This document shows positions 38,412 through 53,565 of a stretch of DNA of 64,000 nt, one piece after another; positions within the stretch are counted from its first letter, which is position 1, and each line of letters begins with the position of its first letter. The position numbers and the translations under genes are program-made. Below the pieces are notes generated by a model. It saw nothing but the letters and a program-made list of their open reading frames with translations, had not been told where the DNA came from and ran no database searches. The stretch covers positions 64,001 to 128,000 of the forward strand of contig CAVQGX010000026.1 in the NCBI GenBank assembly GCA_963712115.1, read 5' to 3'. The stretch is from an uncultured delta proteobacterium. Lineage in GTDB: Bacteria; Desulfobacterota; Syntrophobacteria; BM002.

Positions 38412-39155
38412 TTATTTAGAAAGGATGGCAGGGCCGGGACTCATCCCCGCCCGAGCATTCGCATCTTCGATCTGAACTCGTGCAAAGACTTCAGTTGGTG
38501 AAATTTCACGCCATTTTCCAGGAAAAAGCTCAACAAATCTGCCCACAACCTTCTGGACCACCTCTTCCATGCTGGGATTTTCTCCCAGCAACTTAGCCAT
38601 TGAAGTCACCTGCTCGCTTTTGAGTTCGCAGGGGTTAATGTGGCAAAAATGGTCCATATTGGGGGAGACGTTCAGGGCGAAGCCATGAAAGCTGACCCAT
38701 CGCCTGATGGCAACGCCGAGGGCGGCCACCTTTAGGTGTGAGACCCAGACGCCTCGGTGTAACGGGTCACGGCCAGCTTGAATGCCAAAATCGGCCAGAA
38801 CCTGGATTATGGTTTCCTCGAGCAAATCGACATACCTGCGGATGGAGAGATCCCGTTGACTTAGATCAACTATGGGATAGACTACCAACTGCCCTGGGCC
38901 GTGGTAGGTGACATCTCCTCCTCGTTCAACTGGATGAACCTGAATTCCCTCAGAGGCGAGCTCTGCCGAAGTTGACAAAATGTTGGTTCTGTTCCCCCGC
39001 CGGCCTAAGGTGATAACCGGCTCGTGCTCCACCAGCAGCAGAGTGTCAACCACTAGGTTCCCCTGACGCAGTTCAACCAGTCGTCTCTGCAGGTCGAGTA
39101 CGTCGAGGTATCTGGCGCGACCTAGGTTTACAATCCAACCATCACTGTTTGTCAT
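38412..39155 (-). CDS. lipB: Lipoyl(octanoyl) transferase
   Basis: EHEPVITLG, RGGDVTYHGPGQLVVYP, HGFALN and INPC. Confidence 0.95.
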   Translation of the reverse strand: MTNSDGWIVNLGRARYLDVLDLQRRLVELRQGNLVVDTLLLVEHEPVITLGRRGNRTNILSTSAELASEGIQVHPVERGGDVTYHGPGQLVVYPIVDLSQRDLSIRRYVDLLEETIIQVLADFGIQAGRDPLHRGVWVSHLKVAALGVAIRRWVSFHGFALNVSPNMDHFCHINPCELKSEQVTSMAKLLGENPSMEEVVQKVVGRFVELFPGKWREISPTEVFARVQIEDANARAGMSPGPAILSK

Positions 39156-39183
39156 CAATTTATTTCGCTTCTCTTTCGATCGT

Positions 39184-39364
39184 CATGGGCATAGGGCATG
39201 GAGCATGGGGCATAGAGTAAGAAGCCAGGAGTCAGAATCCAGAATTCGGGAGAAAAGCTATCAAAACAGAATTCCTCTCAATTTCTGGTATTTTCGCCGC
39301 GTCTCCGTCTCGCCGTTTCACCGCGTCGCCCTGCGGTGCCTAGTGTATAGTGCTTAGTGCCTAG
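39184..39364 (+). repeat. Family R1 copy 3
   Basis: Near-identical to the reverse complement of 16787..16963. Confidence 0.85.
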
Positions 39365-39368
39365 TGGG

Positions 39369-40766
39369 CTAAAGCCCAAGATCCAACTTATGAATCGAAA
39401 GACCCCTCGCATCCTCCACCGCCTCCCACAACGCTTCCGCAACAGTGGGGTGGGCATGTATAGTCCGAGCCATCTCGCTGAGGGTCACACCTTGGTTCAC
39501 GGCCACGGTACATTCAGCAATCAAAGTGCTGGCATCCGGGCCTATTATGTGTATGCCTATTACCCTTTCGTCCTTCTCCCGGGCGATTACTTTGACAAAA
39601 CCGTCTATTTCGCCGATGGCGTGTGATTTTCCCAGGGCGCGAAAAGGGAAAGATCCCTCGAGGTAGCCAATACCCTGTTCTTCGCACTGTTGGCTGGTAA
39701 GTCCAACGAAGGCAACCTCGGGACTGGTAAATATGGCCACAGGTACAGCGTATTCGTCCACTTTTGCTTCCTGATTTCCCAATCCATGCTCCACCGCGAC
39801 TATCCCTTGGTGAGAGGCAAAGTGAGCTAGCTCTCTTTTGCCGGTAACGTCGCCGATGGCATAAACTCCAGGCAAATTGGTCTGACAGTGCTGATCAACC
39901 TGGACATAGCTGTTCTGCAAATTGACGCCAGTGCCATGCAACCCTATCCCTCGAGAAACAGGAGTTCTTCCCACAGTAACGAGGACCGCTTCTGTCTCGA
40001 TACGTTTGCCAGAGTCAAGGGTGATTTCCACGCCAGATGAGGTGTGGGAAGCAGCGACAGGAGGGTCTCCAAGATGCAGTCTTATTTTTCGTTTTTTTAG
40101 GGCTCGAATGAGTGCTTTGTTGATGTCCCGATCCAGGTCCTTAATAGGTTCCTTGCTGCGCTTGGTCATATGGATGGTGGAGCCAAGAGCACTGAAGAGC
40201 AGGGCGAATTCACACCCAGATACACCACCGCCCACAATAAAGAGGCTTTCGGGAATCTTTGTCAATTCCAGCATGCTGCGGGTGTTAAACACTTTCTTAT
40301 GGTCCCAGGGCAAGAGATCTAGGGGTAGGGGTTCTGATCCGGTAGCTATGATGAGCTGTTTGCCGCGAACCCTCTGGATTTGCCCATCCTTCGTCTCAAC
40401 CTCAACCTCTCCTGGGCCTCGCACCTCTCCTCTGCCCAGGATCAGGTTAACTTTGTGTTTCTTGAACAATCGTTCGACTCCTTCACGGAGCTCTGCCACA
40501 ATCCGCTGGTTTCTACCAACAATCTTGTCCAAATGAGCAACAGGGTGCTGGCAACTCAGGCCAAATGCTTCCGCCTGGCGCATTTGTTCAAATAGGACGG
40601 CGGATTTGTACATGGCCTTGGTAGGAATGCAACCCCAGTTGAGACAGGTCCCGCCCACCAGTTCCTTTTCGATAATGCAGACTTTGGCTCCTAGTTGGGC
40701 GGCCCGAATAGCTGCTACGTAACCACCTGGTCCGGCTCCTAAGATGATCGTATCGTAATGAGACAT
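39369..40766 (-). CDS. lpdA: Dihydrolipoyl dehydrogenase
   Basis: GAGPGGYVAA, GGTCLNWGCIP and HAHPTVAE. Confidence 0.95.
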   Translation of the reverse strand: MSHYDTIILGAGPGGYVAAIRAAQLGAKVCIIEKELVGGTCLNWGCIPTKAMYKSAVLFEQMRQAEAFGLSCQHPVAHLDKIVGRNQRIVAELREGVERLFKKHKVNLILGRGEVRGPGEVEVETKDGQIQRVRGKQLIIATGSEPLPLDLLPWDHKKVFNTRSMLELTKIPESLFIVGGGVSGCEFALLFSALGSTIHMTKRSKEPIKDLDRDINKALIRALKKRKIRLHLGDPPVAASHTSSGVEITLDSGKRIETEAVLVTVGRTPVSRGIGLHGTGVNLQNSYVQVDQHCQTNLPGVYAIGDVTGKRELAHFASHQGIVAVEHGLGNQEAKVDEYAVPVAIFTSPEVAFVGLTSQQCEEQGIGYLEGSFPFRALGKSHAIGEIDGFVKVIAREKDERVIGIHIIGPDASTLIAECTVAVNQGVTLSEMARTIHAHPTVAEALWEAVEDARGLSIHKLDLGL

Positions 40767-40785
40767 TAAACCTGGTCTCCTGCAC

Positions 40786-41892
40786 CTACACATATTTTAG
40801 TTCGTAATCTCTGCTTCCAAGTCCCAACTCTTCTGCATAACCTAATTGGATGGACCAATCAATGTGAGGGTAGACGCCCCGAAACTTGTCTTCACCAGGC
40901 CCTCTATTGCTTTCAAGGCAGCAGTCAGGTAGGGCTGGCTGCGCATTGACTAGATCCACTGAAGCCTGGTCGATGGCCACCGGATCCCTGCTTGCCAGAA
41001 TGCCCAAATCCCTCACTAAAGGAACGTCGCTAAAGCCATAACAGTCGCACTGCGGAGTTACCCGGCTGACGAAACTGAGGTAGAAGGCACGGTCTTCCTT
41101 GTTTTTGAGGACTCCCACCGTGTATTCCACCATTTTCTTCTGAAAACGGGCCGTGTCGCTATCCCAGGGGATGGAGACAGCCGCTTCCGGGCACACTGCT
41201 ATGCACTCGCCGCAGCCAATACATTTTTCGGCATCCTTCTTGGCCTTTTTCTTGAGCAGTTCAATGGCCTCAACAGGACAGTGGGCTACGCACTCGCCAC
41301 AGCCGATGCACTTTTTGGCGTCGAACTCGGGCGAGATCTCACAATGCTGGGCAAGTTTTCCTTTTCTGGAGGCACAGCCCATGCCCAGATTCTTAATAGT
41401 GCCGCCAAACCCTGCAAGTTCGTGTCCCTTGAAGTGGGCGGCGCTAATGAGAGCGTCCGCCTGTACCACGTCCCCACCAAGGTAAACTTCATCATAGATG
41501 GGAAGGTTCACTGGTACAGCCACCTCAGCGTTACCTCTGAGGCCGTCAGCTATGGTGAGGGGCGCACCAGCCACAGCATAAGCAAACCCATTCTGAATGG
41601 CTGTGGTGAGATGATCCACGCTGTTGGTTCTGGTACCCACATAGAGCGTGTTAGTATCGGTTAAAAAGGGCTTGCCCCCCAGTTTCTGAACTCGATTGAC
41701 CAAATGACGCAAGTGCGTGGGCGGAATGTAAGCCGTGTTCCCCTTCTCTCCGAAGTGCAGCTTGATGGCAATCAGATGCCTTGCCTTGATGATGTCATCG
41801 AAACCAGCAGCATCGAGCAAACGATCCAGCTTGACGTAAAGGTTTTCTTGCAAGCTAGCCCTCAAATCCATGGCAAATACTTCAATCGGCAT
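40786..41892 (-). CDS. DUF362 domain protein with 2x[4Fe-4S] ferredoxin insert
   Basis: IKLHFGEKGN, HFKGHELAGFGGTIKNLGMGC, two CxxCxxCxxxCP motifs and DPVAIDQA. Confidence 0.9.
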   Translation of the reverse strand: MPIEVFAMDLRASLQENLYVKLDRLLDAAGFDDIIKARHLIAIKLHFGEKGNTAYIPPTHLRHLVNRVQKLGGKPFLTDTNTLYVGTRTNSVDHLTTAIQNGFAYAVAGAPLTIADGLRGNAEVAVPVNLPIYDEVYLGGDVVQADALISAAHFKGHELAGFGGTIKNLGMGCASRKGKLAQHCEISPEFDAKKCIGCGECVAHCPVEAIELLKKKAKKDAEKCIGCGECIAVCPEAAVSIPWDSDTARFQKKMVEYTVGVLKNKEDRAFYLSFVSRVTPQCDCYGFSDVPLVRDLGILASRDPVAIDQASVDLVNAQPALPDCCLESNRGPGEDKFRGVYPHIDWSIQLGYAEELGLGSRDYELKYV

Positions 41893-41918
41893 GGGTTCCT
41901 CCCTTAAGTCTACAATCC

Positions 41919-41964
41919 AAAAGATAAGGGCGCCCAACCAACAAAAGACAGGGAGGGCGCCCTT
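41919..41964 (-). terminator. Probable terminator or stabilising hairpin after the SBP gene
   Basis: AAGGGCGCCC...GGGCGCCCTT 10-bp stem followed by ATCTTTT. Confidence 0.55.
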
Positions 41965-42019
41965 TGATCCGAACCTCTCATCTTCCCCGCCAAGAGAGAA
42001 GAAATTGCGGTCGGCCCAC

Positions 42020-43216
42020 CTAATAAACCAGATTCCAACCGCCCTTCCAAATCATTACCATAACCATAGAATTAGTGCCCAATCCGTTGTGATCTTTTGG
42101 GCTGATGTTGTAGATGCCGCTGATTCCCACATAATTTTTGGTCTGTTCAATGGCATCACGTAACATAACGTTATTGGTTCCCACCTTTTTCATGGCATTG
42201 GCTACGATGTAAATAGCGTCCCAGGCGTAGCCCGAGTGGGTGTTGATGGGAAACTGTTTGTCGAAGTCGTACACATCGTTGTAGAGACGGACGAATTCAC
42301 TAATAACTGCTTTCTGAGGATCTGAATCCGAGAGTTGATTGTATGCCATCAACTTAGTGGATGGCATGACATTCCCTTCTGAGGCGCTCCCCGCCAGTTC
42401 TACGTATTTGGGATCCGGCAAGCCGTGACACTGGATCAGGGGTAGTTTAATCGCCAGCTGTTTGACATTTTTGGCAACTATCGATCCAGCCGGGCCAATG
42501 GTCCAACAGATGATTACCTGGGCGTTGGTGTTCTTGATTTTGGTAAGCTGAGTGGTCATGTCAGCATCCCTGACCCCAAAGGACTCATCAGCTACAACCT
42601 CTAGACCGTAGTCGGGAGCTAATTTGGCAAGCCAGCCCTTCCCGTCACGGCCGAAGCCGTCAGATGCAGTAATAAGGGCAATATTCTTGACTTTCTTGGC
42701 CCTCAGGTACTGGTAGACTTTCTTTACCGCTACGGAACTTCGCTGGGGCGACTTAAAGATCCACTTGGCAGTGCCGAAATTCTTGCCGCCGTGCATACCC
42801 TCCATAATAACCGGATCACCACCCACTGTCATTACGGTAGGGATCTGCTGTTCTTCGAGGTATTTTTTTACCGCCATGCCCGTGCCCGTTCGGGTGGGGC
42901 CGATTAGGGCCACGACCTTTTCTTGCTCAACTAAACGTTTGGCGACCATGAGTGCCCTGGTAGGGTCGCCCTCGGTGTCCCCAACAACCAGTGCTAGGGG
43001 GCGGCCGTTTATACCACCTTCTTTGTTTATTTTCTCAACCACCATCTCAGCCACGAGCTTGGTGGGAGTGCCAATAAAAGCCGCAGGACCGGAGAGATCG
43101 AAAAAGGCGCCTATCTTGATCGGTTCTTCAGCGGTGGCCTCATTCACAGAATATCCAAATGAAAAGGCAACCGTGATGGCAAAGAGCAAAACCATAATCT
43201 TTCTCGTCATGTTCAT
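42020..43216 (-). CDS. Liv/HAAT-family ABC substrate-binding protein
   Basis: Signal peptide, PIKIGAFFDLSGPAA, INKEGGINGRP and DMTTQLTKIK. Confidence 0.92.
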   Translation of the reverse strand: MNMTRKIMVLLFAITVAFSFGYSVNEATAEEPIKIGAFFDLSGPAAFIGTPTKLVAEMVVEKINKEGGINGRPLALVVGDTEGDPTRALMVAKRLVEQEKVVALIGPTRTGTGMAVKKYLEEQQIPTVMTVGGDPVIMEGMHGGKNFGTAKWIFKSPQRSSVAVKKVYQYLRAKKVKNIALITASDGFGRDGKGWLAKLAPDYGLEVVADESFGVRDADMTTQLTKIKNTNAQVIICWTIGPAGSIVAKNVKQLAIKLPLIQCHGLPDPKYVELAGSASEGNVMPSTKLMAYNQLSDSDPQKAVISEFVRLYNDVYDFDKQFPINTHSGYAWDAIYIVANAMKKVGTNNVMLRDAIEQTKNYVGISGIYNISPKDHNGLGTNSMVMVMIWKGGWNLVY

Positions 43217-43419
43217 TCTAAAATCCCCCTTATGTCAAATTGTTGTGCTAAGAGCTGAAATTCCTATCCCTGGTCAGTTCAGTATCACCTCCTTCTGTTA
43301 TTTCTCATTTGTAAATTTATGCAAATACGGAAAGTAACAACAATCGTCATATTGGACCTGCGGTTATCCGGTATGGATGGAATAGTCTGTGGTTCTAGAT
43401 TTCCCGCCGCAAGCGGGTC

Positions 43420-43603
43420 AAGCCCGGATGTTTCATGAATTGCAGTCACGAGACCACGAAGATGGGCGTGCCACCGGGCAACCGCAGGGTGTTGGTTCCG
43501 AGGCGTACCTGAATGGTACGTCGCAGGGGTCGACACCCGAGGACGCACGGAGGGACGGGCATATCCGTAGTCGCAGTAAGCGATTCATGAAACATCCGGG
43601 CTA
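43420..43603 (+). mobile_element. Family R3 copy 2 (184 bp)
   Basis: TIR AAGCCCGGATGTTTCATGAAT...ATTCATGAAACATCCGGGCTA; colinear with 27993..28176. Confidence 0.8.
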
Positions 43604-43718
43604 AGACGGATTCCGCAATGTCGGAGTCTTTAATTCCAGTCTCAGTGAGCAAAGTTGTGAGTGAAAGATAGAAATATCCGCAATGATAAATGATAAATGC
43701 GAAATGTGAAATCAGAAA

Positions 43719-45008
43719 TTAACCGCGATGATCAAATACCCTCATGCTTTTGCGCTCAGTTCGTGGCAGACTGCCGTGGTCAATGACTTCCACTTCAGCA
43801 CTCACCAAAATATGCTTGCGAATGTCCTGGGAAATACGACTGGCTATTGCTTCGTTATCTTGAGGTTTATAGCGTGGCCGCCGCTCTACTTTGAGGATCA
43901 TGTAATCGCGGCCGTCTTCTCTTCGTTCGAGATGTACCTGGTACTCGCTGCCTATTTCCGCAATCTGTGACAAGAGGTGATCAATTTGTCCGGGGTAAAT
44001 ATTCACCGCCCTGACAATGAACATGTCGTCCGAGCGCCCAAGGATACGGTCGTGCATGGGCAACGGATTACCGCAAGAGCATGGTTGGGGGATAATCCGC
44101 GTCAGGTCTCGAGTTCTATAACGGATTAGTGGAGCTCCTTCTTTGCGCAGGGTGGTGACTACCATTTCGCCCAATTCTCCCGGTTCAGCCGGCTCGAGGG
44201 TTTCAGGATCTATGACTTCCAATATGTAGTAGTCAGCCCAGTAATGGATGCCTTGGTGTTTACCGCAGTCCAGACCGGTTCCAGGACCGTATAATTCAGT
44301 AAGGCCGGGTATATCAAACACGTGTTCAACTCCGAGGAGTTCCTTGATGCGTCGGTCCATAGATTCGCTGTGCCGCTCTGCACCCAGAATGACTTTCCTC
44401 AGGGTTATTTGCTCCCGAAGGTTCCTCTTTTGCACCTCTTCTCCCATTAGAAGTGCCATGGAAGCGGTGGCGCAGAAGACTGTACTTTGCATGTCCACCA
44501 ACATCTCACAATGCATCTCCGTATTTCCAGGGCCTACAGGCACCGCCATGGCACCTAGTCTCTCGCAGCCCAATTGAAATCCGACACCAGCAGTCCACAG
44601 GCCATAGCCCACGGCTATTTGGACCCGGTCCTCTGCCGAAAGGCCCGCCATCTCATAGCAGCGGGCGAACATGTTGGCCCAGTCGTCAATGTCTTTCTGG
44701 GTATAGCAAAGGACTTTGCGTTTTCCTGTGGTGCCCGATGAGGCGTGAATGCGGACAATTCGGTCGAAGGGCACGGCCCTTAAGGGAAAAGGATAGCCCT
44801 CCCGTAAGTCATCGGCCGTGGTAAAGGGCAGTCTAATCAAATCATCCAGCGAGTTGATCTCCTCTGGAGTGATTCCAGCCTTCTGCAACCGCTGGCGATA
44901 AAAGGGTGAGTTCTCATATGCATGGCGTACTGTCCATTTCAGCCCCTCTAGTTGTAAACTCTTCAATTCCTCTAAGGTCGCAATGTTCGGCATGAACGTA
45001 CGAGTCAT
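43719..45008 (-). CDS. Phenylacetate-CoA ligase family (PaaK-like) aryl-CoA ligase
   Basis: RIHASSGTTGK P-loop, YGLWTAG, GLTELYGPG, RYRTRD and GRSDDM. Confidence 0.92.
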   Translation of the reverse strand: MTRTFMPNIATLEELKSLQLEGLKWTVRHAYENSPFYRQRLQKAGITPEEINSLDDLIRLPFTTADDLREGYPFPLRAVPFDRIVRIHASSGTTGKRKVLCYTQKDIDDWANMFARCYEMAGLSAEDRVQIAVGYGLWTAGVGFQLGCERLGAMAVPVGPGNTEMHCEMLVDMQSTVFCATASMALLMGEEVQKRNLREQITLRKVILGAERHSESMDRRIKELLGVEHVFDIPGLTELYGPGTGLDCGKHQGIHYWADYYILEVIDPETLEPAEPGELGEMVVTTLRKEGAPLIRYRTRDLTRIIPQPCSCGNPLPMHDRILGRSDDMFIVRAVNIYPGQIDHLLSQIAEIGSEYQVHLERREDGRDYMILKVERRPRYKPQDNEAIASRISQDIRKHILVSAEVEVIDHGSLPRTERKSMRVFDHRG

Positions 45009-45045
45009 AGCAACTTCTCCAAGTCGAACAAGATACCAGTTTTGA

Positions 45046-45395
45046 TATGAGATGTGGGATGTGCGATAAGATTGATCTTTCTGGAGAGCCAAGATCCTAA
45101 ATTTCACATCTCAGATCCCATATCTTACATACAGTAGTCAGTAGTCAGTAGTCAGAATTCAGTAGTCATTTGTTGATTCGAGAATTCGTTAATTAGTCAA
45201 TTAGCAAATTCGTCGATTCGTTAAAACATAGAAATCGTTTTGAGCTTTTAACGTTAAACTTCTTATTTCTCGCCGCGTCTCCATGTCGCCGTATCTCCCC
45301 GTCGCGCTGAATTTGCCAACTGTTCGCTACTGGCTGTATTTCCCTATGCCCCATACCCTATGCTCTATGCCCCCCAATCCGAAATCTGCAATCTC
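45046..45395. repeat. Multi-module short-tandem-repeat spacer
   Basis: TGAGATG/TCACATC, CAGTAGT, TTCGTTGA-like, TCGCCGCG and CTATGCC arrays stacked in one intergenic region. Confidence 0.7.
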
Positions 45396-45397
45396 AT

Positions 45398-46687
45398 CTA
45401 CTCCTCAAACACGATTTGCCCTTTCTCGCTGGATAACGTACTCTCCTCAACCAGCTTAACCTTAATGCCCAGGCCGATAGCCCTTCTTAGGTGAGCTCTA
45501 ATACTGTCTGCCAGAGCGTGAGTCCGGTACCAGTCCGAGACAAAGTTGGTGGGATAGGCGACCTGCACTTCCAACTGGTCATTCAGACCGTCACGCTGGC
45601 GAATAATTAGTCGATAGTTTTCTACTTCGGGTGCTGCCTCCCCAAGCAAACGTGCCACCTGTTCTGGATAAATAGCTATACCGCGTATCATGAGCAAATC
45701 GTCTGAGCGACTCAAGGGCGCTGCCATCCGCATACTGGTGCGACCGCACGGACAAGGGTTGCAATCCAAAGTGGTAATATCACCTGTTCTGAAACGGATA
45801 AAAGGATAGCCTTCGTTGGTGAGAGTGGTGATGACCAGTTCACCTTTTTGTCCTAGAGTCAAAGGCTGGCACGAATGGGGATCAACGACCTCTGGATAAA
45901 AGTGGTCCTCCGCCAGGTGGAGTCCTGATTTTTCCTGACATTCCGCTGAAACTCCCGGTTCAACCATTTCGTTGACACCGTAGACTGAATAGGCCTGAAT
46001 TCGAAGACGGTCTTCCAGAGTCCGACGGACGTGGGGCGACATGGCTTCGGGACCTAATAGTCCAATTTTGAGGTGTATCTGATTGATATCAATGTTTTGA
46101 CGTTCTCTGGTCTCGGCAATGTGCATGGCAAAAGAAGGCGAGGTAGCGAGCACCGTACTACGGAAATCCTGCATGATTTGCAGTTGAATCGTGGCGGAAG
46201 CTATTGAGGTGGGGGCTACGGTGGCGCCCACAAGTTCCGCGGCCTGGTTAAAGGTGAAGGCACCGGTGAAAAGCCCATAGTTGAAAGCAACCTGAATAAT
46301 ATCTTTAATAGAGATTCCCATACCGGTCATATGTCGCGCCATCAGTTCCAACCAATTTTGGACATCTTTCTGGGTATAGCCGATCACAATGGGTTGCCCC
46401 TTTGGGGCTGCAGAAAACTTGAGGCGGACAATGGATTTCAACGGCACAGAAAACAACCCATAAGGGTAATGATCTGCCAGGTCTGCCGCTGTGGTACAAG
46501 GAATTCTCCTGAGATCTTCTAAGGAACTGATGTCTTCGGGCAGTAGACCTAGTTCCTCGAACCGACGTCGATAGAAATCTACTTTTGCATAGGCACGGTT
46601 GAGGGTCACCTGTAAACGTTCAAGCTGCAGCTCGGCCAGCTCTTCCCGCGGGAGAGTTTCAATGTTTTCGTTCCAGAAGGCTACCAT
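45398..46687 (-). CDS. PaaK-like protein with degenerate ATP-binding loop
   Basis: Full-length PaaK fold (YPYGLF, FNYGLFTGA, RFRTGDIT, RSDDLLMIRG), but KFSAAPKGQP replaces HASSGTTGK. Confidence 0.85.
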   Translation of the reverse strand: MVAFWNENIETLPREELAELQLERLQVTLNRAYAKVDFYRRRFEELGLLPEDISSLEDLRRIPCTTAADLADHYPYGLFSVPLKSIVRLKFSAAPKGQPIVIGYTQKDVQNWLELMARHMTGMGISIKDIIQVAFNYGLFTGAFTFNQAAELVGATVAPTSIASATIQLQIMQDFRSTVLATSPSFAMHIAETRERQNIDINQIHLKIGLLGPEAMSPHVRRTLEDRLRIQAYSVYGVNEMVEPGVSAECQEKSGLHLAEDHFYPEVVDPHSCQPLTLGQKGELVITTLTNEGYPFIRFRTGDITTLDCNPCPCGRTSMRMAAPLSRSDDLLMIRGIAIYPEQVARLLGEAAPEVENYRLIIRQRDGLNDQLEVQVAYPTNFVSDWYRTHALADSIRAHLRRAIGLGIKVKLVEESTLSSEKGQIVFEE

Positions 46688-46724
46688 TCCTCTTTCGCCC
46701 TCCTCTCGTCTCAAAATGTCACAA

Positions 46725-46912
46725 TGTCATTTGGGATTGGGCTTCGCCCGTCATTAGGCCTTAAGGCCGTCATTTTTGGTCATGTGCCTGCGGCGTCATT
46801 CGGGCTAGCGCCCGTCATTTATGGTCACTTGTAGTTATTTGTCCTATTCATTATCATCAATCATGACGACTTAATGACAACAAATGACAGCGAAGCGTAA
46901 TGACCAAATGAC
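46725..46912. repeat. Family R2 element inside the ABC operon
   Basis: GTCATT units with GGGCTTCGCCC, GGCCTTAAGGCC and GCCTGCGGC; AATGAC units with GCGAAGC. Confidence 0.75.
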
Positions 46913-46915
46913 AAT

Positions 46916-47653
46916 CTACCTTTCCCACTTCTCCTTGTAATCCTTGCCCAAAAAGGCACGGCGCACCTCATCATTTGCCAGAAGCTCGTCAGGTGTTCCT
47001 TCGAGAACAATGCGGCCAGCCTCCAATACGTAGGCCCGATCGCAGATTTCCAAGGCAGCCTGAGCGTTCTGTTCAACTAAAAGTATGGTAGTGCCGTTGT
47101 CCCGAAGCTTGCGGGTTACCTGCAGAATCTCCTGTGCCACGAGAGGTGCCAGTCCTAACGATGGTTCGTCGAGGAGAAGCATTCTGGGCCTGGCCATGAG
47201 AGCCCGTCCAATGGACAGCATCTGTTGCTCACCACCACTCAAAGTGCCAGCCCTCTGCTGGGTTCGCTCTTCCAGGATAGGGAAGAGAGTGTAAATTTCC
47301 TGACGCTGAGATTTGGCCATCCTTTTTTGCTCTTTTTTAGGGAGACTGTAGGATCCCAATTCCAGATTCTCAGTGACTGTCATTGAGTTAAAGATCTGCC
47401 TCTGTTCCGGTACTTGCAGGAGACCAAGGCGAACCATCTTATCCGGTGCCAGTTTGTGAATCTCCTGACGCTCAAAGAAAATACTGCCAGAACTGGCTGG
47501 GTGCAGCCCGCTAATCACGTTGAGCAGGGTGCTCTTTCCCGCACCGTTGCCCCCAATAAGAGAGACTATCTCTCCTTTGTTGACATGGAAGGTCACCCTG
47601 CGGAGCACCTGAATATTTCCGTAATATGCCGAGACGTTCTTTACGAGAAGCAT
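46916..47653 (-). CDS. LivF-like ABC ATP-binding protein
   Basis: GGNGAGKST, LSGGEQQML, LDEPSLGLAP and VEQNA. Confidence 0.95.
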   Translation of the reverse strand: MLLVKNVSAYYGNIQVLRRVTFHVNKGEIVSLIGGNGAGKSTLLNVISGLHPASSGSIFFERQEIHKLAPDKMVRLGLLQVPEQRQIFNSMTVTENLELGSYSLPKKEQKRMAKSQRQEIYTLFPILEERTQQRAGTLSGGEQQMLSIGRALMARPRMLLLDEPSLGLAPLVAQEILQVTRKLRDNGTTILLVEQNAQAALEICDRAYVLEAGRIVLEGTPDELLANDEVRRAFLGKDYKEKWER

Positions 47654-47898
47654 GGCTGTATTCTTGTCTGTTGTCCGCGGTCCGTAGTCCGTTGCTCGAA
47701 TCGTTCAAGCCGTTCAAGTCGTCCATCACAGAGGTCATCGGAGATCAGAGATCAGCTTTTCCCTTTGACCTCCGACATCTGATGTCTGACCTCTGGTTTC
47801 TGCCAGTTGCTAGCTGCCAGCTTTATTTTCCCTATGCTCCATGCCCTATGCTCTATGCTTTTGACAAAACGAACAACTCGACAGTGCGCATGAACCAA

Positions 47899-48681
47899 CT
47901 ACGTGGAGCCGCCACCTAAATACGCCCGGATTACCTCCGGATCCCTTTGGATCTCCTCGGGTGAACCTTCAGCGATCTTCAACCCGTGATGTAGGACAAT
48001 GACCCTATGGGCTATGCTCATAACCAAATTCATGTCATGTTCAACCAGTAGAATGGTTAGGCCGTTTTGCCGCAATCCCTTGATAATGTCACCCATCTCC
48101 TCCGTTTCCCGGATGTTGAGACCCGCAGCAGGTTCGTCCAAAAGCAGTAAACAGGGGTCAGACACGACGGAACGGGCAATTTCCAAACATCTTTGTTCTT
48201 TCAGGCTAATGCTGTCCGCCTTTCGGTAAGCTAAATGGCCGATGCCGAACTTCTCCAGTGTATCTCCGGCCTGACCTATTGCCTTTTTCTCCTCTTGCCG
48301 TTCTGCGGGCAAGTGTACCATACCTTTGAGAAAACCGCTGCGCAACCGGTGGTGCAGCCCCAGTAAGACGTTCTCCATTACGGTCATATGCTGAAAGATC
48401 TGGACTGACTGAAAAGTTCTTGCCACTCTTTTTTTGGCAATCTGGTAAGGCTTTAGCCCTGAAATGCTTTCTCCATCGAGCAAAATCTCACCACTGGTTG
48501 GAGGATAGACCCCAGAGATAAGGTTGAGTATTGTAGTTTTCCCCGCGCCGTTTGGGCCAATAAGAGATACGATTTCACCTGAGTCCAGACGGAAGGAAAC
48601 GTCCGCAATCGCCAGCAACCCATCGAACTGCTTTTTAACTTCTTCGAGGTGTAATAGGGTGCCGTTAGTTTTCATTGCCAT
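47899..48681 (-). CDS. LivG-like ABC ATP-binding protein
   Basis: GPNGAGKTT, ARTFQ, LDEPAAGLN, VEHDM and VIRAYLG. Confidence 0.95.
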   Translation of the reverse strand: MAMKTNGTLLHLEEVKKQFDGLLAIADVSFRLDSGEIVSLIGPNGAGKTTILNLISGVYPPTSGEILLDGESISGLKPYQIAKKRVARTFQSVQIFQHMTVMENVLLGLHHRLRSGFLKGMVHLPAERQEEKKAIGQAGDTLEKFGIGHLAYRKADSISLKEQRCLEIARSVVSDPCLLLLDEPAAGLNIRETEEMGDIIKGLRQNGLTILLVEHDMNLVMSIAHRVIVLHHGLKIAEGSPEEIQRDPEVIRAYLGGGST

Positions 48682-48732
48682 TGGCGAAGCGCCCTCTCCC
48701 TTCAGACGACTGTGTCACAATTCGCCGAAGCC

Positions 48733-48858
48733 GTCATTCCGGATGAGTCCGCCGAAGTATAGGCGGGCGAGGTCCGGAATCCAGCGAGGTTTCAATATAG
48801 TCTGATTCTTCCTGGATCCCGGCTCGCGTCCCGCTTTGCGAGACTTGGCCGGGATGAC
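48733..48858. repeat. GTCATTCC-type REP-like palindrome
   Basis: GTCATTCCGG..CCGGAATCCAG...CTGGATCCCGG..CCGGGATGAC architecture. Confidence 0.7.
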
Positions 48859-48905
48859 TTATGGTGCAACAGCCTCCAGGGTTATGGAGGTTTTTTTGTA
48901 AGATT

Positions 48906-49871
48906 CTATTCTGATAACAAAATTTTCTTTGACCGCTTCTGAGACCATAGCTTTACCAGTCCCGGCAGCAAGCCTTCCGGAAAGAACACCAGAACTCCCA
49001 TCAGGATTACCCCATAAAGCAGGAGGGCGTAATCACGCATGGCATGGAGCACTTCAGGCAAAGCCGTGAGCAATGCAGCGCCCAGTAAACCTCCCCAGAG
49101 ATTACCTATACCCCCCACCACCACCATAGTGACAACCTGAATGGAATAAAAGATGTCAAAAGTCTTGGGACTGATAAATGAGAGGTAGTGGGCATAAAGG
49201 CTCCCCGCCAGAGAGGCATAGGCTGCGCTGATAGCAAAGATGACAATCTTGTAGCGTTCGGTGTTGACTCCCAGGGCATTGGCTACAAGTTCATTTTCAT
49301 GAATAGCTCGAAGTGCCCGGCCCACGCGGGAATCCACCAGGTTAAGAGAAACAAAGAAAACTAGCAGGAAAAAGGACCATAGTAGCCAGTAATAGTGGAG
49401 GTCACCCTGGATGGTAAAAGACCCCAGGTGGAGAGGAGGGATTCCAGAGAAACCAGATGGCCCACCAGTCCAATATTCCATCTGGACCATAAGAATGTAG
49501 AGGATGATGTTAAAGCCCAAGGTTGCCATGACCAGGTAGTGGCCCGCAAGCCTAAGAGTTGGTATACCCAACACATACGCGACCGCAGCAGTAAAGACCA
49601 TTACCGCCACTAAAGTCGGCCAGGGCGGTGTATTATACATGGCGGTAAAGATGGCCGAGAAGTACGCCCCCATCCCGAAAAAGGCCGCATGGCCCAGTGA
49701 GATTTGACCAGCAAACCCGATCAGCAGGTTCAAGCCAAGGACCACCAGGCCGTTTATCGCAATAATATTCAGGACCAGCAGGTAGTAGCCTCCTTTGACT
49801 ACGAGGGGAAGCAGGGCCACTAGCCCTGTCAGTCCAAAGAAGTAAATCCATTTTTTGTGGGTCTTAGACAT
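48906..49871 (-). CDS. LivM-like ABC permease
   Basis: GLNLLIGFAGQISLGHAAFFG, SRVGRALRAI and VVVGGIG. Confidence 0.93.
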   Translation of the reverse strand: MSKTHKKWIYFFGLTGLVALLPLVVKGGYYLLVLNIIAINGLVVLGLNLLIGFAGQISLGHAAFFGMGAYFSAIFTAMYNTPPWPTLVAVMVFTAAVAYVLGIPTLRLAGHYLVMATLGFNIILYILMVQMEYWTGGPSGFSGIPPLHLGSFTIQGDLHYYWLLWSFFLLVFFVSLNLVDSRVGRALRAIHENELVANALGVNTERYKIVIFAISAAYASLAGSLYAHYLSFISPKTFDIFYSIQVVTMVVVGGIGNLWGGLLGAALLTALPEVLHAMRDYALLLYGVILMGVLVFFPEGLLPGLVKLWSQKRSKKILLSE

Positions 49872-49935
49872 AACAAAAGAGTCCGTGGCAATTAAGGCTA
49901 ACTAGATGGCACAAGGCGCAGGGCGCAAGGCAGCA

Positions 49936-50075
49936 TTAGGTCATTATGCTCCGCGCTGTCGCGCTTCGCTGTCACTAGGCTCCGCCGTCATTAGGCCTTA
50001 CGGCCGTCATTATGTTGTTACAATAAATGACCATGAATGACAGCGTAGCGTATTGACGCGAAAGCAAATGACTCT
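49936..50075 (+). repeat. Family R2 element; near-identical inverted copy of 54738..54876
   Basis: About 140 bp with about 4 differences by eye; flanking heptamer modules are also shared. Confidence 0.85.
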
Positions 50076-50122
50076 CCGCTGGCCGCTGATTTAACCGCTA
50101 TGCCCTATGCTCTTTGCTCTTT

Positions 50123-51004
50123 CTATACTCGCTTGATCTCTTCCTTGCCAAACAGCCCTGTGGGTTTGATAAAGAGCACCAGCAACAGGATAAGAAAAGC
50201 AAAGGCGTCCTTGTAAGCAGATGAGACAAAGCCAGCACCAAAGGTTTCCATGGCCCCGAGAAGAAGTCCACCCAGTACTGCGCCCTTCATGCTGCCGTAA
50301 CCACCCAATATTGCAGCAGCAAAGCCTTTTAGTGCCAGCATGACCCCAGCGCTGTATGACATAGTGGTAATTGGGGTAATAATGATACCGGCCACCGCTC
50401 CGATCCCGCCACTGAGAACGAAAGAAAGCAATGTCATGCGGTATACGCCTATACCAATAAGGGCAGCCCCTCGCCGATTCTCAGCCACTGCTCTCATGGC
50501 TTTGCCTACCATGGTGCGACTGAAAAAAAAGCCGAGCAAAACAACTACCAGCAGGGTGATTCCCAGGATCCAAAGAGTTTGGGGTAGGATAGCAGCACTG
50601 CCTAGGATCAATGGTTCATCACCAGAAAAAGGCGGCAAAGTCCGCGGGGTTTTACCCCATATATGCATGGCCGTTTCCCGCATGGTGATAGAAGCGCCCA
50701 CGGTGATCATCACCAGAATCAGAATGCTGTCCGAGCGAGCCCTACGAATAGGTCCAATCTCCATTAACCAACCCACTACCATTACAGCTAGCACCGCCAG
50801 AGGAAAGGCTATGAGCAGCGGAAGTCCAGCAACCTGGGTGAGGCTGATCATGGTCATGGCGCCGAGCATGACAAACTCTCCCTGGGCGAAGTTGACAATG
50901 CCTGTGGCGTTATGAATGATCCCGAAACCCAGGGCAATGAGGGCATAAATACTGCCACTAGTGAGTCCTGATACAAAGAATTGAGGGAGCTGAGACCAGA
51001 TCAT
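50123..51004 (-). CDS. LivH-like ABC permease
   Basis: GSIYALIALGF..VNFAQGE, GKAMRAVAEN and KGFAAAILGG. Confidence 0.93.
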   Translation of the reverse strand: MIWSQLPQFFVSGLTSGSIYALIALGFGIIHNATGIVNFAQGEFVMLGAMTMISLTQVAGLPLLIAFPLAVLAVMVVGWLMEIGPIRRARSDSILILVMITVGASITMRETAMHIWGKTPRTLPPFSGDEPLILGSAAILPQTLWILGITLLVVVLLGFFFSRTMVGKAMRAVAENRRGAALIGIGVYRMTLLSFVLSGGIGAVAGIIITPITTMSYSAGVMLALKGFAAAILGGYGSMKGAVLGGLLLGAMETFGAGFVSSAYKDAFAFLILLLVLFIKPTGLFGKEEIKRV

Positions 51005-51281
51005 AAGCACAAAGCTGCTAGTTTGGTTGTTTTTTGATCAGTCTATTTTTTCTCAACTTCGAATCACCAAAATTCAAAACAGAACGTTTTTGCCACTGGC
51101 AAAAGGGAATGATTTTTGATGTGAAATCAAGTTTCGGTCATTTGAACTTAGGATTTTGGATTTGTTTGGATATTCGAATTTCGATATTCGGATTTGATGA
51201 GTTTACTCATCGCTGGCCTCAATGGGGGCCAGAATAGAGATTTTGTAATAGGTCAGCAAATCTCTATGAACAATCCGGCCC

Positions 51282-51320
51282 AAAAACAGAAAAGCCGTGA
51301 GCTTTAAAGCCGCCCACGGC
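51282..51320 (-). terminator. Attenuator terminator upstream of the Liv/PaaK operon
   Basis: GCCGTGGGC-GGCTTTAAA-GCTCACGGC followed by TTTTCTGTTTTT. Confidence 0.85.
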
Positions 51321-51344
51321 GATAATCTTGTGACCGGAATCAGT

Positions 51345-51413
51345 TCATGTGGGCCTGTGGGCGGACCTATCCTTGGAACTCCACCACCAAGGCCATGAAC
51401 GATTCAGGTGCAT
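51345..51413 (-). CDS. Trp-rich attenuator leader peptide MHLNRSWPWWWSSKDRSAHRPT
   Basis: AAGAGGT RBS; 22 codons with TGG at positions 7, 9, 10 and 11; the 3' part is complementary to the terminator 5' arm. Confidence 0.85.
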   Translation of the reverse strand: MHLNRSWPWWWSSKDRSAHRPT

Positions 51414-51503
51414 CCGCTAACCTCTTGGAAACAGGAACCTAAGTCAATTTCGCTACATAGCAGACCCGCGGTTGGAGTGTCAAGGGAAATTCAGCGGAAC
51501 GAA

Positions 51504-51665
51504 GCATAGGGCATAGGGCATAGGGCATAGAGCATAGAGTAAGTAGCCAGAAGTCAGAATCCAGGATTCAGGAGAAAAGCAATCAAGATGGAATTCCCTG
51601 CAACTTCTGGCATTTTCGCCGTGTCTCCGTCTCGCCGTTTCACCGTGTCGCCCTGCAGTGCCTAG
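51504..51665 (+). repeat. Family R1 copy 4
   Basis: GCATAGG array, CAGAATCCAGGATTCAGGAGAAAAGCAATCAA core, TCGCCGTG array and TGCCTAG. Confidence 0.8.
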
Positions 51666-51699
51666 TTGAAATGGATGCCTACTCCAAAGTGCCCAGCAG

Positions 51700-53565
51700 T
51701 TACTTCTCCGCGCCACATAACACCTTGTGCGGTTCCTCATTAACCGCCAAGCTCAGAACCTGCTCACCCTCTCGAAACATGAGCCGTTTGGCAACCATAT
51801 GAGAAATAAAATTCTGCAGCTTATCGAAAGACAAGCTGGGAAATTCATGGAGGATCTGGCCCTGAGTTCGACGTGTTTCACAAAAGCGATAAATACCCCG
51901 CGAGGATCCCTTGAGTCGAAAGGTCTCCATCTCGTAATCTTTGGTTCGCCGACGGATTAAGAGAAAATCTCCTCCGTCACGGTAGCCAAGCAAAGGGGCA
52001 GGGAAATGGTCTTTTCGAAGTGAGTGGTATCGCTCTTGCCAGCTGGCAAGCTCCCTAGCTACCGGCCGCCAGAGTTTCTTTTGTTTGGTGCGATCGCCTC
52101 TGTATGTTTTTATCATTAGGCAGAGGGACTCTGCGAGTGAGTGCGGGAGCAACTTCTTATAGTGTGGGTGATTGGCCACACTGCGGATGCCAAATTGTTC
52201 CGGGTGAAGGTGCACCGGGCTATTTTGCCCCAGCCAGAAAAGGACTTTGCGAAGAGGTTGATAGGGTAGGACAAACTTGAGATTGTTGAGGGTTTCCTCA
52301 ACATCATTGCCATCGCTTGTTGGAAAGCCCAGGATCAGGTTGGATGAATGCTGGATGCCCAGTTCCTCGCAGTGTTTCATCATCTCGATGTTTTGGATGG
52401 CCGTGGTCCCTTTGTTTATTTTATCAAGGAGTCTGGTGCTCAGGGCCTCAACTCCAATCTGGACCTGATTGACCCCGGCTTTCCGCATCTGAATGAGATC
52501 GCCACGTGAGACAGATGACCTTAATTCAGCAAAGATCTCGAAGCTCCGATCTATATCAGTGATAGATTTGAAGAGTCCTTTGAGCTTGCGGCTGTCCAGA
52601 ATGTTGTCAGTAAAGGAGAATTTCAGACTAGAGTGTTTGCTGGCCAACTCTTCCATTTCCCGCGCTACTTGAATGGGTTCTTTGCTCCTGTACCCTCGCC
52701 ACTGCAAATTAAGATTGCAGAATTTGCAGGCACGATCGACCGAGCCAGACCTTACTCTTTGCCACCAGCATCCTCGAGAGGTTTCCACCGGTAGATTGGG
52801 TATTAGGTTGGACAAACGAGATTGACGACTTAATTGCTCAAAATAGTCACTGTAGTCTGGCACAGGAAGTTCTTTCAGGTTCAATAGCTGTTTCAGCCCT
52901 CCCCCATTGATATTACCCTGGTTATCCCGCCAAAGCAGGCCGGCAGGGTCATCACCTTTGAAGTCGCCATTCTTGATTCGGTTAATCAAAGTTAACAGCG
53001 GCAGTTCACCCTCTCCGCTCGCCACGAAGTCGATCTCAGGTGAGTTGGCAAGGAGGGAGTAACCCAGTTCGCCTGCGCAACTTGATCCGCCAACCACTAT
53101 GGGGCAAGGGGGATGATGCCTGCGGATCTCCCTGATCATATAGAGAGATGAGGTCAATTGGGAAAGACAGATTGAAAAACCGATGAGATCATAAGAAGAC
53201 CAAGCCAGAGTGAGATGTTTCCTTTGGTGCAAGCGGTGAATCTGTCTGGAGATATTTTCAAGATCTGGAGAATCCCCTTTTGCCTTGGCACTATACTCCT
53301 TGGTAACTAGATCAGTTATTTCACGTCTTCCTGTCGGGTTGAACAGATAAGCGTAAACGGATTCTGCTACCCAGGTTCGCTCGGCAATATCATTGTAGGC
53401 TTTGAGCCCCAATAAATTGCCCACCTCGAGGTAAGGATGGTAACAGTCAATCTTTACGTCTGCCGCTTTGTTTTCGATGAAACTCTTTAGGGTGCCTAGT
53501 TGTATGGAAGGTCGGTTGGCCAAGGGCCAAGGCATGGATATGAGAGCGAGGCGGAATGCCGCCAT
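51700..53565 (-). CDS. B12-dependent radical SAM C-methyltransferase of the 'RiPP maturation radical SAM protein 1' type
   Basis: ISMPW..RPSIQLGTLK, VVGGSSC, SGEGE, ETSRGCWW..CKFCNLN, FTDNIL and QIGVEALS. Confidence 0.85.
   Translation of the reverse strand: MAAFRLALISMPWPLANRPSIQLGTLKSFIENKAADVKIDCYHPYLEVGNLLGLKAYNDIAERTWVAESVYAYLFNPTGRREITDLVTKEYSAKAKGDSPDLENISRQIHRLHQRKHLTLAWSSYDLIGFSICLSQLTSSLYMIREIRRHHPPCPIVVGGSSCAGELGYSLLANSPEIDFVASGEGELPLLTLINRIKNGDFKGDDPAGLLWRDNQGNINGGGLKQLLNLKELPVPDYSDYFEQLSRQSRLSNLIPNLPVETSRGCWWQRVRSGSVDRACKFCNLNLQWRGYRSKEPIQVAREMEELASKHSSLKFSFTDNILDSRKLKGLFKSITDIDRSFEIFAELRSSVSRGDLIQMRKAGVNQVQIGVEALSTRLLDKINKGTTAIQNIEMMKHCEELGIQHSSNLILGFPTSDGNDVEETLNNLKFVLPYQPLRKVLFWLGQNSPVHLHPEQFGIRSVANHPHYKKLLPHSLAESLCLMIKTYRGDRTKQKKLWRPVARELASWQERYHSLRKDHFPAPLLGYRDGGDFLLIRRRTKDYEMETFRLKGSSRGIYRFCETRRTQGQILHEFPSLSFDKLQNFISHMVAKRLMFREGEQVLSLAVNEEPHKVLCGAEK

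Follow-up and report, generated by a model that had tools for sequence, protein, structure and literature searches.

The 64,000-nucleotide (nt) stretch of contig CAVQGX010000026.1 that was analysed here (the window) belongs to an uncultured delta proteobacterium (assembly GCA_963712115.1; genome G000, 4.9 Mb) and carries a seven-gene operon for a Liv-type ATP-binding cassette (ABC) importer with two PaaK-type CoA ligases, preceded by a short open reading frame (ORF) rich in tryptophan (Trp) codons. On balance, the sequence comparisons make it probable that this leader is a Trp-sensing attenuator of the trpL type placed on an operon for the uptake and CoA activation of aromatic acids, the cargo most likely being indolic, e.g., indole-3-acetate (IAA). 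All elements of the operon are co-oriented on the minus strand, in the order leader, livH, livM, livG, livF, paaK1, paaK2 and the gene of a solute-binding protein (SBP), and every element that an earlier note on this DNA had listed (a Trp leader 5' of livHMGF, two paaK genes and an SBP gene, all in one orientation) was recovered. The nearest named relatives are uncultured metagenome-assembled genomes of Desulfobacteraceae/Desulfobacterales. Comparisons were made with 22 family genomes, 18 of them of the genus (handles G), and with 80 related loci (L001 to L080); contigs of G000 are given as C.

Attenuator design of the leader

The leader ORF (51345..51413, minus strand, as are all features of the operon below) comprises 22 codons for the peptide MHLNRSWPWWWSSKDRSAHRPT, starts with MHLNRSWPWWWSS and has a Shine-Dalgarno sequence, AGAGG, 7 nt 5' of its ATG. 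The core of the peptide is W-P-W-W-W, with four Trp in five codons. The regulatory Trp codons (51381..51395; one TGG at 51395-51393 and three in tandem at 51389-51381) are part of segment 1. Segment 2, CCGCCCAC (51357..51364), has two alternative partners, the Trp-codon arm (1:2) and GTGGGCGG of segment 3, with which it forms the antiterminator (2:3). The predicted intrinsic terminator (3:4; 51282..51320) consists of the stem GCCGTGGGC / GCTCACGGC followed by TTTTCTGTTTTT. The region 51425-51270 folds at -62.7 kcal/mol, compared with -50.0 ± 4.2 kcal/mol in shuffled sequences (z = -3.05, with one of 200 shuffles folding as well). A promoter-like site (51454..51483) was read from the sequence, with TTGACA at 51483-51478, an 18-nt spacer ending in TGc and TATGTA at 51459-51454; this predicted site is missed by the consensus scan because its -10 element ends in A.

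A DNA search of the 22 family genomes found the leader in five (G000, G002, G006, G016 and G010), all of the genus, at 78-96% identity. The orthologous leaders of the four other carriers are MHLNRSWPWWWSSKDRSAHTPT, MRLNRSWPWWWWSY, MRLNRSWPWWWGNS and MTSNHAWFWWWWILRERSAHSPT. The Trp run reads W-x-W-W-W or W-x-W-W-W-W, the difference being a 3-nt TGG indel in frame, and is retained throughout, with a leader stop codon that shifts among the carriers (14 to 23 codons). The mutually exclusive pairings can be computed in all five genomes, with energies of -25 to -32 kcal/mol for 1:2, -13 to -22 kcal/mol for 2:3 and -17.7 to -20.9 kcal/mol for 3:4. Segment 2 shows a C-to-T change in two carriers, for which a G.U pair is still possible, and the terminator stem and U-run are invariant except for one change from G.U to G-C, which improves the pairing. 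The promoter stretch is invariant across the five aligned carriers from the extended -10 onward. Regarding covariation, these five close sequences set a limit, as they contain one change from G-C to G.U, one from G.U to G-C and no double-sided compensatory change.

Genome-wide, the six frames contain 623 Trp-run codon patterns, of which 507 fall in frames no longer than 60 codons. A loose filter (Trp run, start codon, hairpin and T-run) is passed by 20 short ORFs in the 4.9-Mb genome, only two of which start with ATG, have no more than 30 codons and carry a hairpin of -17 kcal/mol or lower within about 60 nt of the stop; these are the leader described here and the leader of trpE.

Searches with Rfam yielded one tRNA and no Trp_leader in the whole window at gathering scores, and no Trp_leader in 50900-51800 at E values up to 10, the three matches there at E 3-10 being microRNA and small-RNA noise. 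The leader thus has the design of the trpL mechanism without membership in the enterobacterial sequence family. The consensus scan for promoters and terminators in 38000-52000 was no richer than shuffles (12 vs 12.7 and 13 vs 13.9, respectively) and missed the terminator of the attenuator.

The leader resembles the trpL attenuator of Escherichia coli (Rfam family Trp_leader, RF00513) in having a short ORF with tandem Trp codons, 1:2, 2:3 and 3:4 hairpins, a terminator with a U-run, and a stop codon so placed that a non-stalled ribosome would mask segment 2. It differs from trpL in that it matches neither its sequence nor its covariance model, has four Trp codons instead of two, precedes a transporter and CoA-ligase operon instead of trp genes, and occurs in a sulfate reducer of the Desulfobacteraceae type. 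The design of a ribosome-mediated, Trp-sensing transcription attenuator of the trpL type is confirmed at the level of sequence, and Trp-dependent read-through is predicted by analogy with trpL.

Aromatic leaders and ior genes elsewhere in the genome

The earlier note had stated that the genes of indolepyruvate:ferredoxin oxidoreductase (IOR), iorAB, lie outside the window, and had pointed to iorAB and the trp genes as what should be found in the genome; both are present, with iorAB at C43:48014-50765. IorA scored 790 bits against a cut-off of 650.9 bits and is the single bona fide iorA product of the genome, and IorB scored 198.8 bits, slightly below its cut-off of 205.8 bits. The gene order of this cluster is SBP-livH-livM-livG-livF-paaK-iorA-iorB. 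It is preceded by TTGACA-17-TATGGT, the leader MAFSARQTVLQRYYYFFYYFSGETSVH (..YYYFFYYF..) and two tandem terminators (C43:40760-41040; L137:2761-3041), and the leader region shows the same 1:2/2:3/3:4 design with a fold z of -3.01. DNA of this leader was matched in 21 of the 22 family genomes, and 16 of 20 ior-cluster loci gave an ORF with a Tyr/Phe run (such as YYYYYYY, YYYFFYYF or YYYYYFYY). In the four exceptions the run is broken (G007), masked by N (G011) or aligned in the terminator part only (G019 and G021).

The trp operon was located on contig C7 (trpE 583 bits, trpB 598 bits; seven ORFs of the sizes expected for trpEGDCFBA) and is preceded by TTGACA-18-TAAAGT, a leader of its own, MKKNLNRQKNLVNWYWWWYVCVGVYPLPGE (WYWWW), and two tandem terminators (C7:30130-30345; L105:10131-10346). 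A scan of the genome for short-ORF leaders gave 71 candidates with terminators, mostly Leu-rich noise, among which two further aromatic leaders had identified downstream genes. One of them, MKRRPSPFFCYYYYAMV (FFCYYYY; C7:22208-22288, L105:2209-2289), lies 5' of genes for a DeoC-type aldolase and a 3-dehydroquinate synthase II, an archaeal-type entry to the shikimate pathway; the other, with ...CKYYFYYC... (C33:109808-109906, L158:9809-9907), lies 5' of a DAHP synthase gene. The genome appears to hold both shikimate entry routes, each of them attenuated. Altogether, five transcription units have leaders with aromatic codons, three of them biosynthetic (trp, DAHP synthase, aldolase/3-dehydroquinate synthase II) and two being Liv/PaaK(/IOR) clusters. 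Three other candidates were rejected as aromatic leaders: MPGWFWPWPWAS (C43:7185, C45) is inside a 585-aa ORF, SFFFHF (C18/C46) stands about 500 nt before an FHA-cNMP-PilZ gene, and MDKFFFTSLF (C30) has an MscS channel gene downstream. No leader was found before the third paralogous cluster of the genome (paaK-SBP-livHMGF on C7).

The four aromatic attenuator terminators that were read (two of trp, one each of the liv-paaK operon and the ior cluster) start with GCCGTGGG, and the antiterminators share a CCAC/GTGG core. This shared terminator start and antiterminator core hint at a common origin by duplication.

Among the 80 related loci, four in other orders (L004, L011, L026 and L046) have aromatic leaders before related clusters: Phe-rich leaders (MRFRFFYFGFF...) stand 5' of paaK-SBP-livHMGF in two Desulfobacterales loci, and Tyr-rich leaders stand 5' of SBP-livHMGF-paaK in one Syntrophales and one Smithella locus. 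No convincing leaders were found before iorA in loci of the Geobacteraceae type. Homologues of iorAB occur within the retrieved flanks of 26 of the 80 loci; in L002 and L003, which hold the closest LivH orthologues outside the genus, the ior genes are directly 5' of livH.

By the codons of their leaders, the two Liv/PaaK clusters are placed in an aromatic-amino-acid starvation regulon. Genes that are switched on when a charged tRNA runs short are expected to have a supply role and not a catabolic one, and membership of the Liv/PaaK clusters in such a regulon therefore favours an anabolic salvage of aryl acids.

Transporter and solute-binding protein

The transporter has the composition of a HAAT-family (Liv-type) importer, with two BPD_transp_2 permeases, two ATPases with a BCA_ABC_TP_C tail and a Peripla_BP_6 SBP. 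The permeases are of the livH type (50123..51010, 295 aa; PF02653, E 1.3e-37) and the livM type (48906..49871, 321 aa; PF02653, E 2.1e-45), and the ATPases are of the livG type (47899..48681, 260 aa) and the livF type (46916..47653, 245 aa), each with PF00005 and PF12399. All four score below the NCBIfam equivalog cut-offs for Liv proteins (LivH 129 vs 379, LivM 162 vs 366, LivG 291 vs 362 and LivF 276 vs 441 bits), and the livH-type permease is on this score not an orthologue of E. coli LivH. The periplasmic SBP (42020..43216, 398 aa; PF13458, E 8.5e-54) has a Sec-type signal peptide with the N-terminus MNMTRKIMVLLFAITVAFSFGYSVNEA. Its matches in the PDB were 7ylt (3.7e-31), 3sg0 (7e-31) and 4dqd (4.5e-30), whereas LivJ (1z15) was matched at only 5.8e-7. 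These matches assign the SBP to the aromatic-acid SBP clade and not to the LivJ clade, and as far as they go they give the ligand class right, without identifying IAA. The entry 7ylt corresponds to AdgB/IadK2 of Variovorax according to a data-availability statement in bioRxiv. In PMC10374108, IadK2 is described as binding IAA with nanomolar affinity and phenylacetate not at all, and the label B-III for aromatic-acid SBPs is taken from the same text.

In Firmicutes, transporters of Trp are known that respond to Trp through T-box or TRAP control. The operon could encode an importer of tryptophan or aromatic amino acids induced by Trp starvation, with the PaaK-type genes serving another purpose such as regulation of the pump. 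HAAT-family systems are classical amino-acid importers, the permeases and ATPases match Liv models best, the leader stands directly before the transporter genes, and PaaK1 lacks a P-loop. This explanation is nevertheless judged improbable, as the SBP is far closer to aromatic-acid binders (about 1e-31) than to LivJ, PaaK2 has every adenylation motif that was checked and is under purifying selection, and the recurrence of paaK after livF and of adjacent iorAB among the related loci fits an aryl-acid cargo.

Equally improbable, in our estimate, is a real switch with a different cargo, i.e., indole-3-propionate, indole-lactate, indolepyruvate or a phenyl-type acid, in which case the leader would signal a general aromatic shortage. 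The SBP lies nearly as close to 3sg0, 3uk0 and 4dqd, which bind monocyclic aromatic acids and all fall within 4 bits of 7ylt, and by hand mapping the pocket residues of the SBP differ from those of IadK2; the ligases assayed in PMC13285125 take phenylacetate, hydroxyphenylacetate and indoleacetate alike. Against such a cargo, a paralogous set under Tyr/Phe attenuation is already present for phenyl-type acids, Trp is the sole repeated codon of the leader, which argues for a Trp-specific product, and IOR requires an aryl-acetyl-CoA, a demand met most simply by an acid with a C2 side chain. For the SBP of the Tyr/Phe cluster, 3sg0 and 4dqd score higher than 7ylt, which ranks 7th, about 29 bits below 3sg0; the different preference of the two SBPs for 7ylt is a weak hint in the direction expected for an indolic cargo of the operon.

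The two PaaK proteins

The earlier note had described one degenerate and one intact paaK, and both descriptions hold. PaaK2 (43719..45107, an ORF of 462 aa whose real start is probably Met34 at 45008) is of the aryl-acetate-CoA-ligase type and carries all adenylation motifs checked, namely the P-loop S-S-G-T-T-G-K, R-T-x-D, G-R-S-D-D and the C-terminal Lys. In PaaK1 (45398..46714, 438 aa), RFRTGD, SRSDD and the C-terminal Lys are retained, and two other motifs of a competent adenylate-forming (ANL) ligase are replaced (SAAPKGQ for SSGTTGK, YGVNE for YGxTE). Both proteins belong to the PaaK-type family at scores below the equivalog cut-off of TIGR02155 (411 bits for PaaK2 and 387 bits for PaaK1, against 646.3 bits). 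The best solved match of PaaK2 is PaaK of Bacteroides thetaiotaomicron (4r1l, E 1e-110, from query residue 42). Ratios of non-synonymous to synonymous substitution rates (dN/dS) against the L001 orthologues, with dS near saturation, were 0.080 for PaaK1 and 0.062 for PaaK2; the value of PaaK1 lies within the range of the other operon genes (0.05-0.09 for the other six), and PaaK1 is thus not a decaying pseudogene.

In a maximum-likelihood tree of 71 PaaK homologues, computed with a quick search, a branch with a Shimodaira-Hasegawa-like approximate likelihood ratio (SH-aLRT) of 97 separates 30 of the 31 copies located after livF from all copies that precede an SBP gene; the pre-SBP copies that were read all have SSGTTG. 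In the 'post-LivF' subfamily, to which PaaK1 belongs, the P-loop is canonical in Geobacteraceae, altered to SSGTTSKP or SSGAT-KP in other copies and unrecognisable in G000, L001, L002 and L003, and the pattern suggests that it decayed independently in several lineages. Other post-LivF variants read include TTTDTIDTP, TLRSGQVNP and SAAPKGQP, with intact ORFs throughout (L001-L080, G000 C43, C64). The paaK gene follows livF in 32 of the 80 loci, with a stop/start overlap or a gap of a few nt in about one third of them, and none of the 32 livF-paaK junctions was a translational fusion. A search for longer homologues of PaaK1 (768-2190 aa, and thus blind to a fusion of about 680 aa) yielded five proteins, none with LivF domains and three with ferredoxin-type domains. 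The latter (P0001-P0003) are PaaK-type ligases of 973-997 aa from metagenomes, fused to several 4Fe-4S ferredoxin-type domains, with 41-42% identity to PaaK1.

A complex model of LivF and PaaK1, computed from alignments of 20 rows each, scored 0.75, with 0.00 for the best of three controls, at least 95% contact agreement across runs and a predicted local distance difference test (pLDDT) value of 86 for the partner. Of 157 solved complexes 116 reached the mark set for this score, as did 2 of 215 mismatched pairs, a calibration that is only roughly valid with our own alignments. The predicted interface joins LivF residues 3-8, 18-23 and 214-229 to the N-terminal helices 28-63 of PaaK1, together with residues 90-94 and 115-116. 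PaaK1 may therefore dock on LivF, a binding that the model supports without showing it. We know of no solved LivF-PaaK complex.

Distribution of the leader and transcripts

Of the 18 genus genomes, 14 have a LivH orthologue with at least 85% identity. Leaderless spacers between the radical-SAM gene and livH were read in G007, G012, G008, G013, G004, G014 and G005; these comprise 77-317 nt of repeats only, and no remnants of the Trp leader were found in these seven genomes. Among the 80 related loci no Trp leader was found upstream of livH, and no candidate with a terminator was found anywhere; the Trp-run matches obtained there were rejected as they lie inside SBP coding regions, off frame. 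The Trp leader is, by this comparison, a young and patchy addition to the operon, and the operon is taken to be older than its Trp control because orthologous operons in the genus and in L001 are without the leader. The Tyr/Phe leader of the ior cluster is much older than the Trp leader.

Parts of the window are contained in 20 public sequencing runs, including six RNA libraries, and four metatranscriptomes were examined at the level of contigs only. In run X15, record 7 covers the leader and terminator (51450-51212, 239 nt) and continues into livH (51014-50859, 156 nt); between the two, 74 other letters replace 197 nt of the terminator-livH spacer. In run X19, record 26 joins paaK1 (45453-46731) to paaK2 (44743-45010), and record 25 joins paaK2 (43607-44579) to the SBP gene (42801-43352). 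The bridging contigs have different, shorter spacers and about 94-97% identity, and therefore represent relatives and not this strain. A strict bridge between livH and livM was not obtained from the RNA contigs, which reach only 26 letters on the livM side. High depth at 43284-43604 and 51309-51600 corresponds to dispersed repeats. The RNA contigs are compatible with read-through and with co-transcription across the repeat-filled spacers, and are weak evidence for both.

Proposed mechanism and its weighing

With ample charged tRNA-Trp, a ribosome would pass W-P-W-W-W to the stop codon and cover segment 2, the 3:4 terminator would form, and transcription would end at about 51282. With scarce tRNA-Trp, the ribosome would stall on the TGG run and melt the 1:2 pairing; segment 2, freed by the stalling as in trpL, would then pair with segment 3, and RNA polymerase would enter livH. 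The SBP would capture the acid in the periplasm for import by LivHM/LivGF, the P-loop-less PaaK1 would sit on LivF, tethering or gating, and PaaK2 would form the aryl-acetyl-CoA. The IOR encoded on C43 would carboxylate this thioester reductively to indolepyruvate, which an aminotransferase would convert to tryptophan. In this scheme we infer the indolic aryl-acetate cargo, the substrate of PaaK2, the direction of IOR and the aminotransferase step. The reductive route itself has a precedent in Methanococcus maripaludis, which uses CoA thioesters and IOR to turn aryl acids into aromatic amino acids (Porat et al. 2004, as cited in PMC4162585). PMC13285125 (2026) reports that the ligase encoded beside the Bacteroides IOR is an arylacetate-CoA ligase, argues that AMP-forming ligases favour biosynthesis and leaves the point open.

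The anabolic role proposed in the earlier note is partly supported. Its regulatory logic stands, given iorAB, the leader of the trp operon, the Tyr/Phe leaders and the aromatic-acid clade of the SBP; the indolic ligand and the substrate of PaaK2 are still inferences, and the IOR leader counts against the claim.

Several observations weigh against the proposed role. The main gap is that the ior-cluster leader has no Trp codon; starvation for Trp only would not induce IOR by that route, and its supply would need basal read-through or joint starvation for aromatic amino acids. The leader is patchy, since of the 14 operon-bearing genus genomes five have it, seven are without it and two are unreadable at contig ends; L001 (86% LivH identity, same gene order), L002 and L003 are likewise without a Trp leader. 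The spacer of 270 nt between terminator and livH (51011..51281), which consists of 7- and 14-nt tandem repeats and varies among relatives, could house another promoter, and a promoter-like site lies directly 3' of paaK2, though such sites are no commoner than in shuffles. The RNA contigs form no single transcript, may include DNA carry-over, and in some cases start at 51518, upstream of the proposed -35 element. For the SBP, 7ylt leads 3sg0 by less than 1 bit, and the pocket does not appear IadK2-like in detail: at the positions of IadK2 F168, W172, R199, F308 and Y311, which mutagenesis showed to matter for IAA binding, it has A, F, V (followed by an Arg), H and Y, as mapped by hand with an offset of 27 in a low-identity alignment. 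PaaK2 falls below the PaaK equivalog cut-off and has a long branch (1.6) within the canonical clade, and its substrate is not fixed by sequence.

A catabolic operon, in which phenylacetate- or auxin-type acids serve as carbon and electron source for sulfate reduction and the Trp leader is recent and of little physiological meaning, is less probable still than either of the two explanations considered with the transporter. It could draw on the seven of 12 readable genus genomes that have the operon without the leader, on the nearest NCBIfam name, which is that of the catabolic PaaK, and on Aromatoleum, where anaerobic auxin degradation starts with the SBP IaaM and the CoA ligase IaaB (PMC8360864). 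The operon, however, contains no iaa, pad or ring-reduction genes, the IOR cluster stands under a family-wide Tyr/Phe leader, which would be senseless for catabolism, and the Trp leader keeps its frame, Trp run and three pairings over 78-96% DNA identity. A leader ORF with hairpins that arose by chance or has decayed to a non-regulatory state would fit the lack of an Rfam Trp_leader match at E up to 10, the leaderless state of most relatives and a promoter and 3' end that are predicted only, but is highly improbable in view of the fold z of -3.05, the design kept in five genomes with an in-frame TGG indel that preserves the run, and the rank of the leader as one of two strong candidates in 4.9 Mb, the other being that of the trp operon.

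Comparison with known systems

The proposed Trp-sensing salvage operon shares with the route of M. maripaludis the sequence aryl acid, aryl-acetyl-CoA, IOR, arylpyruvate and amino acid, and homologues of IorA and IorB are present. It differs in its bacterial host, in dedicated ABC importers and PaaK ligases that are clustered with or paralogous to ior, and in control by amino-acid-specific leader peptides. The pair of IOR and ligase in Bacteroides (4r1l, the closest solved relative of PaaK2) raises the same question of synthesis or degradation (PMC13285125), and differs from the present operon, which has no adjacent IOR and adds an ABC importer, a P-loop-less PaaK and a Trp attenuator.

Variovorax IadK2/AdgB (7ylt), the top PDB match of the SBP, likewise falls in the B-III aromatic-acid SBP cluster and has a partner ABC importer. 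The match is distant (E about 4e-31), and of the five IAA-contact residues mapped by hand one is the same, one is replaced conservatively and the Arg is displaced by one position. The iad system of Variovorax, moreover, feeds aerobic auxin inactivation and not synthesis (PMC10374108). In Aromatoleum aromaticum, uptake of indoleacetate by a binding protein (IaaM) is similarly followed by CoA activation (IaaB); that system is catabolic, has many downstream iaa genes and is under the protein regulators IaaQ/IaaR instead of a Trp leader (PMC8360864).

The HAAT importers of Rhodopseudomonas palustris resemble the present one in pairing Liv-type permeases and ATPases with an aromatic-carboxylate SBP, and differ from it in serving the catabolism of lignin monomers. 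The PDB entries 3sg0, 4dqd, 4jb0 and 3tx6 belong to this group of importers (CouPSTU and relatives). We know of no leader-peptide control and no transporter-linked PaaK pair described for these importers.

Spacers, repeats and neighbouring genes

The spacers between the genes of the operon measure 200-500 nt and contain heptamer tandem repeats and copies of a dispersed repeat abundant in the genus; the description of the spacers as repeat-filled in the earlier note was correct, with 7-nt tandem repeats in nearly every one. The dispersed intergenic repeat is about 160 nt long, with heptamer arrays of the CTATGCC type, and occurs in the window at 51500-51666, 39187-39344 and 16814-16963; more than 250 matches were found across the 22 genomes, with many copies per genus genome. 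A separate repeat in the paaK2-SBP spacer (43421-43604) reaches a summed depth of 100-700x in the metatranscriptome contigs.

The upstream neighbour, a B12/radical-SAM gene at 53586-51700, is not counted in the operon. Downstream of the SBP gene (38412-41937), genes for a DUF362 protein with an inserted 2x[4Fe-4S] domain, a dihydrolipoamide-dehydrogenase-like flavoprotein and a lipoate ligase of the LplA/B type were found. The ORFs of the DUF362 protein and the flavoprotein overlap by 8 nt, and the three genes hold their position in L001; they are not counted in the unit. Within G000, the contig pairs C7/C64, C18/C46, C34/C35, C39/C40 and C43/C45 share near-identical short-ORF contexts and one whole liv-paaK cluster, which fits strain heterogeneity or duplication (marker-gene contamination 5.99%).

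Significance

Each of the components has been described before: leader-peptide attenuation, HAAT importers for aromatic acids, PaaK ligases and the IOR route of salvage. A search of the literature outside subscription journals found nothing that links leader peptides to ior, paaK or liv clusters in bacteria. The present operon contributes the Trp-specific leader of a Liv/PaaK operon, the whole-genome view of the regulon, and a PaaK subfamily encoded after livF that is predicted to dock on LivF. Among anaerobic bacteria, the combination of IOR and an AMP-forming aryl-acetate ligase is widespread, and PMC13285125 leaves degradation versus synthesis open, the Bacteroides pair being one that only "may" be biosynthetic. 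A switch that senses starvation is a direct regulatory answer to this question of synthesis or degradation.

A wider and distinctly more tentative proposal is a modular salvage of aryl acids to amino acids in sulfate reducers and syntrophs, with leader-labelled sets of importer and ligase, PaaK on LivF for vectorial acylation, and IOR run in reverse so that CO2 is fixed onto the thioester. Each Liv/PaaK set may be tuned to one aromatic amino acid, to Trp in the operon described here and to Tyr/Phe on the ior cluster, and the P-loop-less PaaK may recruit the catalytic ligase or gate the pump, trapping the acid as a CoA thioester on entry. If this modular reading is true, the leaders would provide a sequence-only key to ligand specificity for hundreds of proteins annotated as 'branched-chain amino acid transporter' or 'phenylacetate degradation', and the predicted contact of LivF and PaaK1, if real, would be a new type of coupling between transporter and enzyme. 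If the role proposed for the present operon is true, genes now annotated for phenylacetate catabolism or for the transport of branched-chain amino acids would have to be reinterpreted as serving anabolic salvage, and sulfate reducers of sediments would be expected to save on the costly Trp pathway by taking up indole acids derived from fermentation.

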